Origin: an uncultured Acidobacteriota bacterium
GTDB taxonomy: Bacteria > Acidobacteriota > Vicinamibacteria > Fen-336
DNA length: 64,000 bases
Assembly: GCA_963720545.1 (NCBI GenBank)
Contig: OY970399.1
Coordinates: 2,112,001 to 2,176,000, forward strand
Direction: 5' to 3'
The notes under the pieces: generated by a model
The model's input: the letters and a program-made list of their open reading frames with translations, nothing else
Told to the model about the DNA's origin: nothing
The model's database searches: none
Translations under genes and position numbers: made by a program
Shown: positions 13,713 through 18,419 of the stretch, one piece after another
Layout: the number at the start of each line of letters is the position of its first letter
Position numbering within the stretch: the stretch's first letter is position 1

Positions 13713-14834
13713 TCAGTCGTTCTCGTCCGCCGCGCGGGCCGCCAGAGACTCCAGGCTTTTTTCCCTGAACTGCCTGAATTGACCCAGCCGGATACTTTGC
13801 CCGATGGCCCTCAGGGTGTCAAGGTAATGGGCCAGGTTGTGGATGGTCATGAGGATCGCGGCGCCCATCTCTCCGGCCATGTGCAGGTGGCGCAGGTAGG
13901 CGCGGCTCGCGGTGCGGCAGGTGAGGCAGGCGCAGCGCGCGTCGGGCGGCCGCGGGTCGTCGCGGTAGCGCGCGTTGCGAATCGAGATGCGCCCCGCCGA
14001 GGTGAACAGCTGGCCGTTGCGGCCGTTGCGCGTCGGCAGCACGCAGTCGAACATGTCGACGCCGCGCGCGACCGCGTCGAAGATGTCCTGCGGCGTGCCG
14101 ACGCCCATCAGGTAGCGGGGCCGCTCCTCGGGCAGCAGCGGGTCGAGGAGCGACAGCACGCGGCGCATGTCCTCCTTCGGCTCGCCCACCGACAAGCCGC
14201 CGATCGCATGGCCTGAAAAGCCGATGCCGCTCACCTGGCGGGCGCTGCGCTCGCGCAGGTCGTCGTGCACTCCGCCCTGCACGATGCCGAACAGCCACTG
14301 GTCCGGGCGCGTGTGCGCACGCGCCGAGCGCTCCGCCCAGCGTGCGGTGCGCTCGGTGGCCGACGCCACCTCCGCGCGCTCCGCCGGATACGGCGGGCAT
14401 TCGTCGAACGCCATGACGATGTCGGCGCCGAGCTGCATCTGCACGTCCATCGAGCTCTCGGGCGAGAGATGGTGGCGCGAGCCGTCGAGGTGGCTCTGGA
14501 ACCAGACGCCGGCGTCGTCGAGGGTGCGCAGTTCACGCAGGCTCATCACCTGGTAGCCGCCGCTGTCGGTGAGGAACGGCTTGCGCCACGGCGTGAAGCC
14601 GTGCAACCCACCCAGGCTGGCGACGAGCGGCGCACCCGGGCGCAGCATCAGGTGATAGGTGTTCGCGAGGATCACCTGAGCGCCGAGTTCGTGAAGGTCG
14701 CGGTGCGTTACGGCCTTCACGGCAGCGGCGGTGCCGACCGGCATGAACACCGGCGTCTCGATGTCGCCGTGCGGCGTTTTCAGGATGCCGGCGCGCGCGC
14801 GGCCGTCCCGGGCGAGCACCTCGAAGGAGAACAT
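13713..14834 (-). CDS. tgt: tRNA-guanine transglycosylase
   Basis: Start MFSFEVLARDG (ATG 14834); ETPVFMPVGT, LTDSGGYQV, GIVQGG, DMFDCVLPTRNGRNG, CACLTC zinc site. Confidence 0.97.
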   Translation of the reverse strand: MFSFEVLARDGRARAGILKTPHGDIETPVFMPVGTAAAVKAVTHRDLHELGAQVILANTYHLMLRPGAPLVASLGGLHGFTPWRKPFLTDSGGYQVMSLRELRTLDDAGVWFQSHLDGSRHHLSPESSMDVQMQLGADIVMAFDECPPYPAERAEVASATERTARWAERSARAHTRPDQWLFGIVQGGVHDDLRERSARQVSGIGFSGHAIGGLSVGEPKEDMRRVLSLLDPLLPEERPRYLMGVGTPQDIFDAVARGVDMFDCVLPTRNGRNGQLFTSAGRISIRNARYRDDPRPPDARCACLTCRTASRAYLRHLHMAGEMGAAILMTIHNLAHYLDTLRAIGQSIRLGQFRQFREKSLESLAARAADEND

Positions 14835-15063
14835 CGGTGGGTGCCGGATTTTAGCCGCTCGCCCGGGCGCCACTATCAAACGTTGTATACAAGGCATTTG
14901 TCCGCGCGGCATTCGCGGCGTCCGGCGCCTGCCGCGCAGCCGCTGCGCGCCTGGCCGCGCCGATATCGATTTCAACCAGCATCCATGCGGTCCGGCGCGG
15001 ATCCAGCGCTTTTCTTCCACAGCCTAAGTTGTGTGCGCTCTTTCACCTCGGGCGGAGCGGACG

Positions 15064-15103
15064 CAAAAAAAGGCTTGACAGGGTATGGGGCGCTCCCTAC
15101 CCT
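15064..15103 (+). promoter_or_regulatory. Strong sigma70 promoter with A-tract UP element
   Basis: A-tract, TTGACA 15075-15080, 17-nt spacer, TACCCT 15098-15103. Confidence 0.75.
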
Positions 15104-15198
15104 ACCGCTAGTATGCCAAGAGCGCAGTCACCCGATAGGTTGTTTCGGTCGGATTGTGCGGCGCCCTTGAGTTCGCGTCCGAAAGGGGGGATCTAACA

Positions 15199-15252
15199 AT
15201 GGCGGCGAAGAAGAAGGCGGCGAAGAAGAAGGCCACGAAGAAGAAGAAGTAG
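15199..15252 (+). CDS. 17-aa Lys/Ala-rich micropeptide MAAKKKAAKKKATKKKK
   Basis: ATG 15199 to TAG 15252; SD AAAGGGGGGAT 6 nt upstream; downstream of the promoter; duplicated at 15389. Confidence 0.75.
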   Translation: MAAKKKAAKKKATKKKK

Positions 15253-15388
15253 TCGTCTTTGAAGAGGCGGCGGGCTTGCCTTCAAGCCGCACCCTGGGTT
15301 AGCCCGCAGCCCGATCTTCACCGATGGCTTTGATGCCGCAGCCGTTGAGATCTTTCGTTTTTCGGATCCGAGAGGGGTGATGAAACCA

Positions 15389-15442
15389 ATGGCAGCCAAG
15401 AAGAAGGCCGCAAAGAAGAAGGCCACGAAGAAGAAGCGCTAG
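15389..15442 (+). CDS. 17-aa Lys/Ala-rich micropeptide MAAKKKAAKKKATKKKR
   Basis: ATG 15389 to TAG 15442; SD GAGGGGTGAT upstream; differs from copy 1 by synonymous Ala codon changes plus K17R. Confidence 0.75.
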   Translation: MAAKKKAAKKKATKKKR

Positions 15443-15464
15443 TTGGCTTCAGAAACGTGAGTAC

Positions 15465-15502
15465 AGGGGGTGGGGACGTTTCTCTCGCCCCCTCATTTTT
15501 TT
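15465..15502 (+). terminator. Rho-independent terminator
   Basis: AGGGGGTGGGG...TCTCGCCCCCT stem followed by CATTTTTTT, between micropeptide 2 and the convergent HAD gene. Confidence 0.8.
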
Positions 15503-15508
15503 GCCGGC

Positions 15509-16345
15509 CTAGGCCGGCTGCAGGACGTAGCGCTCGACGGCGACGGCGACCCCGTCGTCGTCACTCCCCGGCAGCACCTCGAAGCCGGCGGCCAGCAGGC
15601 CCTTTTCGGCGGTTCCCATGACGAGCCCGCGGCCCGCCGCCTGCAGCATCTCGAGGTCGTTCCAGTTGTCGCCGATCGCGAGCACCTGCTCGCGCCGCAC
15701 ACCGTGGCGCGCGCACAGCGACAGCAGCGCCTCGCCCTTCGACACCCCGGGGCGCAGCACGTCGATGAACGCGCAGCCGAGGTGTGGGTACACGGTGCGC
15801 GTCGCGAACACCTCGTCGCCGAGCGCCGCGCCGATGCGTGGAAACAAGTCGGCCATCGGCAGCAGCGCGCCGCCGAACATCACCTGCACCGGATCGCCCG
15901 GATAGTCGCGCGTCAGGTCGGAAACCACGCGCACCCCGTCGCGCGAATGACCAAGGTAGCGCGCCAGCGATTCGTGCACGCTGCGCGCACCCTCGACGTA
16001 GAGGAGACCTTCGCCGCGTGCGCCCCAGTGCACCACCGGGTCGGCATCGAGGCGCCGTCCCAGCTCGATGACCCGTGCCGCGGTCGCGCGCGGCAGCGCT
16101 CGGCAGAGGATGACGGCGCCGTCTTCCACCACCAGCGCGCCGTTGTGGAGGATGAGCGGCACGTCGAGGCCGAGGGCGTCCGCCACCTGCCGCGCCGAGG
16201 GATGGCGCCGGCCGGTGACGAGGGCGATGCGCACGCCGCGGCGCGCGGCCGCGTGCAGTGCGGCGCGCGTCCTGGGCGTGATGGTCTTGGCCGTCGTGAG
16301 CAGCGTGCCGTCGATGTCGAGCGCCACCAGCGCGACCGGGTCCAT
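15509..16345 (-). CDS. Cof-type HAD-IIB hydrolase
   Basis: ALDIDGTLL, VTGRR, HNGALV, VSKGEAL, AIGDNWNDLEML; ATG 16345. Confidence 0.93.
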   Translation of the reverse strand: MDPVALVALDIDGTLLTTAKTITPRTRAALHAAARRGVRIALVTGRRHPSARQVADALGLDVPLILHNGALVVEDGAVILCRALPRATAARVIELGRRLDADPVVHWGARGEGLLYVEGARSVHESLARYLGHSRDGVRVVSDLTRDYPGDPVQVMFGGALLPMADLFPRIGAALGDEVFATRTVYPHLGCAFIDVLRPGVSKGEALLSLCARHGVRREQVLAIGDNWNDLEMLQAAGRGLVMGTAEKGLLAAGFEVLPGSDDDGVAVAVERYVLQPA

Positions 16346-16370: not shown

Positions 16371-18419
16371 TCAGCGGCCGTCGACGATGTCGATGCGCTC
16401 GATGACGTCGCCGGGCTCGATGCGGTCGACGACGTCCATGCCCTGCGCGACGAAGCCGAAGAGGGCGTAGGCGCCATCGAGGTGCGGCGTCGGCACGTGC
16501 GTGATGAAGAACTGGCTGCCGCCCGTGTCCTTGCCCGAGAGCGCCATGCCCACCGAGCCGCGGCGATAGGCGCGCGGGCTGAGCTCGCAGCGCAGCATGG
16601 TGCCGGCACCCGGGCTGCCGTTGCCGTCGCCGCGCGGACAGCCGCCCTGGATGACGAAGCCCGGCACCACGCGGTGCAAGGTCAGGCCGTCGTAGAAGCC
16701 GCGGCGCGCCAGTGCCATGAAGGACGCGCTGGTGAGCGGTGCGTCCACCACGTCGAGGCGGATCTCGATGGTGCCGCGGCGGGTGCGCACATAGGCGCGC
16801 GGCGTGAAGAGCGGCGCATCGCTGCGCTGCTCGTAGATGCCGAGCGCCTGGCGGTAGTCGAGGAACGGGCGCGTGACGTTCTCGGGGCCGAGGTCGATGG
16901 GCTCGTCGTCGCCGCGCGCGTGCAGCGCGGCGAGCGCGCGCGCACGCACCACGCGCAGCGGATCGGTGCGCGCGATGTCCTTGATCGCGGCCAGCGCCGC
17001 CGCGTCGTCCTGCGCCGCCAGCGCCTTGATCAGCGCGAAACGCGCGTCGGGATCGGCGTCCTGGAGCGAAGCCTTGTAAGCCGCGTCCAGTGCTTCCGTC
17101 TGGCCCTGCGCCTTCAGCTCTGCGAGCCCCTCGGCGGCCGCGGCGCGCACCGCGAAGTCGGGATCGGCAAGCCGCGACAGGAGTGCCGGCAAGGCCCCTG
17201 CGCCACGCGCGGTGCGCAGCGCCTCGAGCACCGCCGGGATGACGCGCGGCTCCTCGTCGCGCAGCATGCGGTCGAGGATCTCGGACGAGGCGCGGTCGGA
17301 GGCGATGCCGAGGGCCGCCGCGATCTGTGCCCGCACCCAGAACACGGGTTCGGGGTCGAGCCCCGACAACACCAGCGAGAACGCCTCGCCGTCGGTGCGC
17401 GCGAGCGCCGGGAATGCCGCGGAACGGATCCACGGGTCGGCATTGGCGAGATACGGAAAGACCGCGCCTTGCACCGACTTGTCGCCCGGAAGCGCCGCGA
17501 TGGCGCGCAGCGCCTCGTACTTCACCACCGGATTCTCCGACTCGAGAGCGCGCACGGCAGGCGCCACCGCCGCGGCGGCTCCGCTCAGGCCAAGGCCGCG
17601 CAGCGCGGCAACCGCGACGTTCGCGTCGGCGGCGCGCGTCAACTCCGCCAGGCGGGGGACGTCAGCCGGATCCTTGAGTGCCCCGAGGCCGCGCGCCGCG
17701 AACGCCCGGCACAACGGATCGCTCGAGCCGAGCGCCGTTCGCAGGACGGGCGCCAGCTCGGGCTTCTCGATGCGCATCGCAGTCCAGGCGGCGGCCCACC
17801 AGTCGAAGCGCGGCGCGCCGCTCGCCGCATCGATGAGCGCCGTGGCCGCGGCCGGCCCGTCCTTGAGGCGCGCCAGCGCATAGAGCATCAGCTGCGCCGC
17901 ACCCCACTCCGCGTCGGCGGGCGAGCCGTCGTCATCGGCGCCGCCGCGCACCACGATCGGCAGCGGCCGCGAGCCGGTGCTCGCCACCAGCGCCGCGGCG
18001 ATGGCCGCGGCATCGCCTGCATCGCCCAGGCGCCCAAGCGCCTCGGCGGCGCGCCCGCGCACCAGCGCATCCTGCCCGGTGGCGCCAAGCGCCGTGCGCA
18101 GCGCCGGCGCCGCCGCGGGATCGGCGACGAGCCCGAGGGCAAACGCGGCGGTGCGGCGGACCTCGGTGTCGGGATCGCCGAGCAGCTTGGCGAGCGCACC
18201 CGTGATCTCGTGCTCACCAATGCGGCCGGCGGCGAGCGCCGCGCGGCGGCGCACCGAGCGGTCGGGATCGGCGAGCAGCGCCGCAAGCGTGACGCTGCCT
18301 TCGCCGAGCGAGCGGCGATCCTCGAGGACGGCCACGCGCGCGAGCCGCGTCGAACGCGGTGCCAGGGGCGCTTGTGCCTTGGCGGCGAGCAGCAGCGCTA
18401 ACGCGAAGCCGGGCGTCAA
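16371..18419 (-). CDS. HEAT-repeat protein with C-terminal cyclophilin-type peptidyl-prolyl isomerase
   Basis: Signal peptide; repeated DPDxxVRRxAAxALG HEAT units; FYDGLTLHRVVPGFVIQGGCPRGDG, GKDTGGSQFFITH, HLDGAYALFG. Confidence 0.92.
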   Translation of the reverse strand: MTPGFALALLLAAKAQAPLAPRSTRLARVAVLEDRRSLGEGSVTLAALLADPDRSVRRRAALAAGRIGEHEITGALAKLLGDPDTEVRRTAAFALGLVADPAAAPALRTALGATGQDALVRGRAAEALGRLGDAGDAAAIAAALVASTGSRPLPIVVRGGADDDGSPADAEWGAAQLMLYALARLKDGPAAATALIDAASGAPRFDWWAAAWTAMRIEKPELAPVLRTALGSSDPLCRAFAARGLGALKDPADVPRLAELTRAADANVAVAALRGLGLSGAAAAVAPAVRALESENPVVKYEALRAIAALPGDKSVQGAVFPYLANADPWIRSAAFPALARTDGEAFSLVLSGLDPEPVFWVRAQIAAALGIASDRASSEILDRMLRDEEPRVIPAVLEALRTARGAGALPALLSRLADPDFAVRAAAAEGLAELKAQGQTEALDAAYKASLQDADPDARFALIKALAAQDDAAALAAIKDIARTDPLRVVRARALAALHARGDDEPIDLGPENVTRPFLDYRQALGIYEQRSDAPLFTPRAYVRTRRGTIEIRLDVVDAPLTSASFMALARRGFYDGLTLHRVVPGFVIQGGCPRGDGNGSPGAGTMLRCELSPRAYRRGSVGMALSGKDTGGSQFFITHVPTPHLDGAYALFGFVAQGMDVVDRIEPGDVIERIDIVDGR

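Follow-up and report, generated by a model that had tools for sequence, protein, structure and literature searches.

A conserved pair of unannotated 17-codon genes for oligolysine peptides next to tgt in an uncultured Acidobacteriota bacterium

A stretch of 64,000 nucleotides (nt) from an uncultured Acidobacteriota bacterium assigned to Fen-336 within the Vicinamibacteria (assembly GCA_963720545.1, contig OY970399.1, positions 2,112,001 to 2,176,000; the whole stretch is termed the window in the following) contains, between positions 15064 and 15502, two 17-codon open reading frames (ORFs), ORF1 and ORF2, that encode near-identical peptides dominated by lysine. A first-pass annotation, made from the letters alone, had described this place as a complete, unannotated expression unit consisting of a promoter, a leader, the ORF pair with its Shine-Dalgarno (SD) sites and a terminator, lying divergent from tgt, yajC, secD and secF. 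All of these elements were located where they had been predicted (Table 1), and the four genes named do lie divergent upstream of the unit. The downstream flank consists of a convergent HAD (Hydrolase_3) gene followed by a HEAT-cyclophilin gene. The locus constitutes a self-contained micro-operon that extends from ~15110 to the terminator at ~15500 and carries two very strong ribosome-binding sites. As detailed below, the pair of micro-genes for oligolysine peptides with a charge of +10 is real, conserved throughout an order, supported by RNA libraries and unannotated, and it matches no described family.

Table 1. Features of the two-ORF unit and of a gene in its downstream flank; coordinates refer to the window.
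Feature	Position	Strand	Remarks
A7 tract, UP-element-like (putative function)	15065..15071	+	just 5' of the -35 hexamer
-35 hexamer TTGACA	15075..15080	+	followed by a 17-nt spacer to the -10 hexamer
Box CCTACCCTACCGCTAGTATG	15096..15115	+	takes in the -10 hexamer, discriminator and initial transcribed bases
-10-like hexamer TACCCT	15098..15103	+	TAnnnT type
5' leader	15110..15198	+	89 nt; putative transcription start at A15110
Predicted leader hairpin	15122-15159	+	from a fold of the window's own sequence; relatives have a hairpin at the corresponding place, with modest support from covariation
Extended SD of ORF1, GAAAGGGGGGAT	15181..15192	+	
ORF1, MAAKKKAAKKKATKKKK	15199..15252	+	17 codons plus TAG; 10 Lys
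Inter-ORF spacer	15253..15388	+	136 nt, without a T-run
Inverted repeat inside the spacer	15266-15276 with 15301-15311		
SD of ORF2, GAGAGGGGTGAT	15370..15381	+	
ORF2, MAAKKKAAKKKATKKKR	15389..15442	+	17 codons plus TAG
Intrinsic terminator	15465..15502	+	11-pair hairpin (15465-15493) with 7 G-C pairs, then T7
Cyclophilin-type isomerase fused to eight HEAT repeats	16371-18419	-	in the window

ORF1 and ORF2 differ at seven nucleotides, four of which are synonymous third-position changes in alanine codons (codons 2, 3, 7 and 8), while the remaining three all fall into codon 17, where AAG is replaced by CGC and lysine by arginine. The synonymous alanine codons and the single Lys-to-Arg exchange that had been noted before are thus borne out, and the same is true for the claim that ten of the 17 residues are basic. 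A further five are alanine, threonine and the initiator methionine make up the rest, and the calculated charge is about +9.8. After removal of the methionine, each peptide comprises 16 residues with a mass of ~1.76-1.78 kDa and a net charge near +10. Neither peptide contains a hydrophobic stretch of the kind seen in type I toxins or small membrane peptides, alanine being all that is present in this respect beyond the initiator methionine. An alternative in-frame ATG at position 15380 is probably not the start of ORF2, because it is located too near the SD.

A scan of the complete genome (4,089,372 bp, 68.7% GC) for short ORFs (9-60 codons) in which lysine makes up at least 35% of the residues gave six entries. 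Four of these represent ORF1 and ORF2, including two longer alternative starts of ORF2, and the other two are unrelated, trivial ORFs. As the pair accounts for the only strongly lysine-rich short ORFs in the genome, its occurrence exceeds what would be expected by chance. A degenerate peptide pattern matched the genome twice and its reversed control not at all. The associated signals are likewise rare: the SD sequence AAAGGGGGGAT occurs a single time, the box listed in Table 1 is unique at up to four mismatches save for one unrelated match with four mismatches, and the box CCTACCCTACCNCTAGTATG is unique as well, both rRNA promoters of the genome having a different appearance. Longer ORFs with stretches rich in lysine, alanine and arginine that resemble histone H1 are present elsewhere in the same genome, i.e., one of 192 codons at ~899345 on the plus strand and one of 170 codons at ~1994116 on the minus strand (both counted from stop to stop), and judging from their sequences these may encode conventional H1-like proteins.

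Relatives of the unit were initially searched for with a 35-nt degenerate pattern at up to three mismatches. It recovered the ORF from 24 of the 36 further family genomes that were searched and from none of 24 genomes outside the family. A BLAST search with positions 15065-15260 of the window, comprising promoter, leader and ORF1, gave matches in all 59 family genomes and all 25 genera, mostly over the full length and with 70-78% identity, so that the cases missed by the pattern within the family reflect divergence only. In almost every genus that was read, the locus contains a single ORF or a pair, with a length of 13-24 codons and with GAAAGGGGGGAT or GAGAGGGGGGAT in front of each ORF, the latter being the SD of the second ORF in the relatives. 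Among 21 non-redundant family loci, the ATG of ORF1 is invariant, the stop codon is TAG in 13 and TAA in eight cases, and the encoded peptide has a length of 13, 15, 16, 17 or 20 amino acids (aa), all changes in length corresponding to whole codons. ORF2, with 13-24 aa in the family, is present in 15 of these loci and absent from L010, L011, L012, L014, L015 and L024, while ORF1 occurs in all of them.

That selection acts on the peptide had been proposed from the comparison of the two copies in the window and now gains support from the family as a whole. Summed over codons 2-10 of ORF1 in the 21 loci, column entropy amounts to 1.51, 0.73 and 5.94 at the first, second and third codon positions, respectively, and this excess of variation at third positions points to selection on the amino acids. 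The choice of lysine codons tracks the GC content of the genome. A relative with 49% GC encodes a peptide identical to that of ORF1 by a mixture of AAA and AAG codons, again behind GAAAGGGGGGAT, which argues that it is the residues that are kept and not the codons. Among the relatives, length and the order of lysine and alanine drift while composition and charge are kept. The N-termini of the two peptides encoded in one genome tend to be alike (MPV/MPV in L007, MPA/MPA in L017 and L019, identical peptides in L022), a similarity within genomes that suggests gene conversion between the copies.

Conservation extends beyond the family. In the sister family f3, which belongs to the same order, the tgt locus harbors an ORF of 14-15 codons (MAAKKAAKKAAKKKK type) in three of three genomes, and this unit shares the SD, the terminator and the convergent HAD gene with the window unit and is preceded by a TTGACA-17-TACGCT promoter. 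It was found in 16 of 18 genomes of f3, the two genomes without a match being 88% and 91% complete. A 21-codon ORF behind an SD of the second type is present at the tgt locus of family f2 (one of one genome). In one genome from another family of the class, no basic short ORF was found upstream of tgt, and the gene located there is ddl-like as judged by eye from the sequence. The neighboring genes tgt and HAD are retained in many family loci. Frame, start codon and SD are therefore conserved in relatives, as the first-pass annotation had led us to expect, and on the sequence evidence the pair is to be regarded as real protein-coding genes with vertical conservation throughout a bacterial order. 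As an aside, tgt of loci L203 (G041) and L205 (G040) from the sister family contains one in-frame TGA each, which could be a sequencing error or could indicate a pseudogene or recoding.

TTGACA followed by a 17-nt spacer occurs in all 21 family loci (20 recognized by regular expression and L012 by eye because of its short A-run), and a run of four to seven A residues precedes the -35 hexamer in 20 of them. The -10 hexamer reads TACCCT in 15 and TACGCT in six loci and is always located six nt before AGTATG, the invariant 5' end of the 21 aligned leaders. A box of the form CCTAC-CCTAC-CGCTAGTATG (15096-15115), conserved across genera, overlaps the -10 hexamer and the transcription start and places non-consensus C residues in the -10 hexamer; a specific regulator might use it as its operator. 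The SD of ORF1 is identical in 16 of the 21 loci. The 3' end of the 16S rRNA of this genome is canonical and can pair with the SD at ~12 positions, provided that a single base of the rRNA bulges out. Taken together, the strength of promoter and SD and the presence in metatranscriptome assemblies suggest high expression.

The gene pair is present in RNA libraries. Parts of the stretch are contained in 20 public runs, six of which are RNA libraries, and four metatranscriptome runs from three studies were compared. Near-identical contigs cover positions 15110-15397 in run X15 (one mismatch), 15139-15405 in run X16, 15234-15438 in run X17 (no mismatch) and 15133-15445 in run X18. The whole spacer is spanned by contigs of all four runs, and ORF1 and ORF2 are linked on the contigs from X15 and X18, which extend over more than 31 nt of both. 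The contig from X15 starts exactly at A15110, seven nt after the -10 hexamer, in agreement with the transcript that had been predicted to begin at about this position. No contigs of the examined runs fell on 14850-15109 or 15446-15650, from which neither a discrete transcript nor the absence of DNA follows. Runs X15-X18 also contain many short contigs, 90-95% alike, that match the lysine-coding stretches only and then continue into unrelated flanks; one of these joins two lysine-coding ORFs that are 38 nt apart and has its own SD. Their unrelated flanks indicate that similar micro-genes of other soil organisms are represented in the RNA libraries, too.

A described family that would accommodate the peptides, the possibility that the first-pass annotation had left for its own dismissal, was found neither in Pfam, NCBIfam, Rfam or PDB nor in the literature. 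None of 11 family peptides of 20-31 aa, including a 20-aa extended form of ORF2 from the window as the 17-aa forms are too short for the scan, matched Pfam or NCBIfam, Pfam having been searched at E-values up to 1. A phmmer search with a 20-aa family member against PDB chains returned no hits at E-values up to 10, a test weakened by low-complexity filtering. Exact look-up in a collection of 15 billion proteins showed ten of ten family peptides (20-31 aa) to be absent, and a homologue search with a 47-aa form from Bacteroidota gave no scoring hit among 100 candidates. Rfam 15 yielded four matches at a permissive threshold, all at chance level (E-values 0.27-2.9) and far below gathering scores. 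Neither keywords nor five peptide strings led to a description in the literature, and the sORFdb paper makes no mention of lysine. The protein bL38, of 5.6 kDa and from Bacteroidia, was ruled out as unrelated.

Similar Lys/Ala ORFs of 12-35 codons occur in many phyla. An exact search for ATG-(A/P)-x-KKK-(A/V)-x-KK in one genome per species returned at least 120 loci. Among the 123 matches listed, 72 are ORFs of at most 35 codons with at least 40% lysine plus arginine, 57 of which have an SD-like motif upstream; five are short and non-basic, 21 are longer (at least 36 codons) and 25 run off the locus. Named records among these matches stem from Terriglobales, Bacteroidota, Planctomycetota, Dormibacterota, Methylomirabilota and Nitrospiraceae, and Patescibacteria-type lineages, Alpha- and Gammaproteobacteria and others are also represented. 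When the phylum of the window was sampled (400-genome sample), 44 of 401 genomes had the exact pattern and none had its reversed control. Most other families of the class gave zero matches with this pattern, which is too strict to establish absence and missed the f3 form as well. With regard to the C-termini, some of the family peptides end in cysteine (KKC, KKCCC or KKKKKC in L192, L193 and L201), while the Terriglobales-type peptides of 12-16 residues (L173-L181 and others) nearly always end in histidine, as do 18 of the 72 short ORFs among the matches listed. These recurrent cysteine and histidine ends hint at a functional C-terminus.

Regarding their role, we consider it most likely, with roughly even chances of being right, that the peptides serve as free polycations resembling histone tails that act on DNA, RNA or polyphosphate. 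Two strong ribosome-binding sites would drive the synthesis of two near-identical 17-residue peptides from a single RNA, and the products would remain unstructured, like the tail of histone H1 without the rest of the protein. Binding to chromosomal DNA, RNA or polyphosphate would occur by charge alone and would neutralize and compact the polyanion. The conserved leader hairpin and the extended SD could set the dose of the peptides or feed back on it. That composition is kept while length and order drift is easier to reconcile with binding by charge than with a fixed pocket.

Several points weigh against this interpretation or parts of it. The function is predicted from composition and by analogy, and peptides of such length are often quickly degraded. 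The RNA runs had been selected for containing this stretch, assembled contigs provide information on presence and not on level, strand or true ends, and translation of the pair is itself predicted. A consensus sigma-70 scan of positions 14500-16000 returned no promoter-like site; the -10 hexamer is non-consensus, and the scan found no match because TACCCT shares only T1, A2 and T6 with TATAAT (three of six positions). In this genome, the locus lies at 2.13 Mb, far from the polyphosphate genes CHAD (0.83 Mb) and ppk1 (2.72 Mb). Lysine-rich tails of HU proteins were found neither in this genome nor in five genomes of the same class without a pattern match. The idea that a free tail replaces a fused HU tail was consequently rejected, as the HU genes of all six genomes are devoid of a lysine-rich extension and there is no signal of complementarity.

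Alternatively, the peptides could be ultra-small ribosome-associated proteins that fill a groove in rRNA in the manner of bTHX, bS22, bL37 and eL41, which we regard as improbable. These tiny basic ribosomal proteins resemble the peptides in size range and charge, and they are routinely missed by annotation. A consensus -35 hexamer, an extended SD and a terminator of its own are signals expected of abundant translation components, and RNA-related neighbors are represented by tgt in the window, a SpoU methylase at L152 and L153 and a PolyA_pol/CCA-type enzyme at L200. However, unlike bTHX, bS22, bL37 and bL36, the peptides have no match among family models (none of 11 in Pfam and NCBIfam) or PDB chains (none for the 20-aa relative), and their length of 13-24 aa and the order of lysine and alanine are not fixed as would be appropriate for a defined site on rRNA, which we consider a mild argument. 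In addition, ORF2 was lost in six of 21 family loci, no ribosomal-protein gene is present among the flanks examined, and the rRNA promoters of the genome do not share the locus-specific box.

It also appears unlikely that the peptides are dedicated counter-ions or organizers of polyphosphate granules that condense or space polyphosphate like Pseudomonas AlgP. Support comes from the neighborhoods of the short ORF in families f18 and f85 of the same phylum, where ppk1, ppx, CHAD or pstB-phoU lie beside it in arrangements that differ and nevertheless all relate to phosphate. At L186 (G331), the short ORF is located between ppk1 and a convergent ppx, and it is followed by a convergent CHAD gene at L182, L184 (the same place as L163) and L188 (the same place as L167), a Pfam scan having identified ppx beyond CHAD in L182 and L188. 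At L194 (G314), the short ORF is followed by a pstB-like ABC ATPase and phoU. Together with the precedent of AlgP (PMC9239181), these neighbors make polyphosphate a credible target. On the other hand, the phosphate linkage is confined to f18 and f85 with four genera, other families have unrelated neighbors, and since the gene has its own promoter and terminator at those loci, the neighborhood may be inherited synteny. In the window and throughout the order, tgt and HAD are the neighbors, and in this genome a distance of 0.6-1.3 Mb separates the unit from ppk1 and CHAD.

Some further regularities were noted in these neighborhoods. The short ORF lies just downstream of a gene for an NtrC-type sigma-54 response regulator at L182, L186, L188, L192, L193, L194 and L201. 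The short ORFs in this setting are often found beside ppk1, ppx, CHAD or pstB-phoU, yet have a sigma-70-type promoter of their own, and a regular-expression search revealed no sigma-54 box upstream of them. In a second setting, a T2SSE ATPase gene precedes the short ORF and a gene for a sigma-70-family factor follows it (L183, L189 and L194), and at L187, L190, L191 and L193 it directly follows the T2SSE ATPase with no sigma-factor gene scanned or found beyond. Each of the short ORFs in these settings is equipped with its own TTGACA-17-TATATT promoter and terminator. Neighbors in other families include MerR, thiolase, PadR, MqnA-like and T2SSE/sigma factor genes. Three different families have a cyclophilin-type isomerase gene in the vicinity of the short ORF, i.e., in the window, at L193 (7688-8770) and at L201 (6314-6985), and this recurrence is probably remnant synteny.

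Quite unlikely in our judgment is a third alternative, according to which the RNA or the act of translation is the actual product: lysine-rich ORFs would sense the supply of ribosomes or lysyl-tRNA or load ribosomes, or a small RNA would titrate ribosomes via segments resembling SD and anti-SD sequences. In favor of this, the conserved leader always begins with AGTATG at its 5' end and contains a hairpin with some covariation. Two leader hairpins were proposed by eye (alignment columns 11-23/30-42 and 57-61/66-70, the latter just 5' of the SD), for which 72% of the cells are paired compared to 38-53% with slid partners, and the covariation score of 0.224 versus 0.132 in shuffles, reached by none of 500 shuffles, provides modest support. 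When the first 48 nt of the leaders are folded as single sequences, z averages -1.67 and lies below -1.5 in 13 of 23. We regard a 5' hairpin in the leader as likely; the window's own leader fits the consensus poorly and has the hairpin listed in Table 1 instead. Furthermore, in relatives (L004-L024), which have a terminator at the same position as the window, terminator arms resemble the 3' end of 16S rRNA: TCACCCCC plus a T-run is part of the final terminator at 14 of 21 loci, eight of 21 have GATCACC(C/T)(C/T)CC in the hairpin after ORF1, and the 5' arms are SD-like.

Against a function of the RNA as such, no gene that could be regulated follows in the same orientation, as the terminator is succeeded by a convergent gene. 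Variation at third positions reflects selection on amino acids, and the choice of lysine codons follows genome GC. RNAalifold, applied to a MAFFT alignment of the 21 leaders, produced no consensus fold (two pairs only), and Rfam provided no match. The 16S-like motif is not present in the terminator of the window, and the transcript of the window unit as a whole folds with a z of only -1.92. A predicted long-range pairing of the SD of ORF1 with positions 15350-15372 was rejected because it is absent from the sequences of the relatives. An attenuator leader peptide was likewise discarded, since no gene on the same strand is available for control and the terminator (15465-15502) is followed by the convergent HAD gene, with the same layout in relatives.

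Returning to free polycations as the preferred interpretation, we tentatively extend it beyond the order and suggest, as a possibility that may well prove wrong, that the oligolysine genes of many phyla (12-35 residues) form an unrecognized class of encoded, dose-controlled counter-ions that stand between polyamines and histone tails and tune the condensation of nucleoid, RNA or polyphosphate. Here, the promoter box and the structured leader would set the dose, and in relatives the terminators that mimic 16S rRNA may couple output to free ribosomes. Peptides this short are never recorded by gene callers. As a consequence, no annotation or proteome of these soil bacteria includes this conserved and probably abundant cation, and the absence of all ten peptides looked up in the 15-billion-protein collection is in line with this. 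If it is DNA, RNA or polyphosphate that is coated, the peptides would fill a gap in models of bacterial chromatin and polyphosphate condensates and, at the same time, provide a very simple, synthesizable reagent for testing them. Independent of function, the locus illustrates that a gene of 17 codons can be validated by the combination of order-wide conservation, codon-position analysis and metatranscriptome contigs.

Among known systems, the only published mention of anything similar that we found is 'Lrp', a likewise unexplained short lysine-rich ORF of the Bacteroides fragilis cfiA element, which differs in that it is part of a mobile resistance element and has acetyltransferase genes as neighbors (PMC9138018). 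The closest resemblance in composition is to AlgP, an H1-like protein whose tail of KPAA repeats mediates binding to DNA and to polyphosphate granules (PMC9239181), and to the chlamydial proteins Hc1 and Hc2 (PF07432, PF07382), all of which are rich in lysine and alanine (and proline), of low complexity and strongly cationic. None of the 11 family peptides matches the HC2 or Hc1 models of Pfam, and L178, one of the pattern matches in the phylum, is a longer protein with a match to DUF6496 and an HC2 match below the cut-off. AlgP, Hc1 and Hc2 exceed 100 residues, consist of many repeats and are often folded in part, whereas the whole product has 17 residues here and 13-24 in the family. In HU-like and SWIB-like proteins of other phyla, as judged by conserved motifs, M-A-x-K-K-K-A-x-K-K marks the beginning of long Lys/Ala tails. 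Unlike these fused tails, the 'tail' encoded in the window stands alone and has a promoter, an SD and a terminator of its own.

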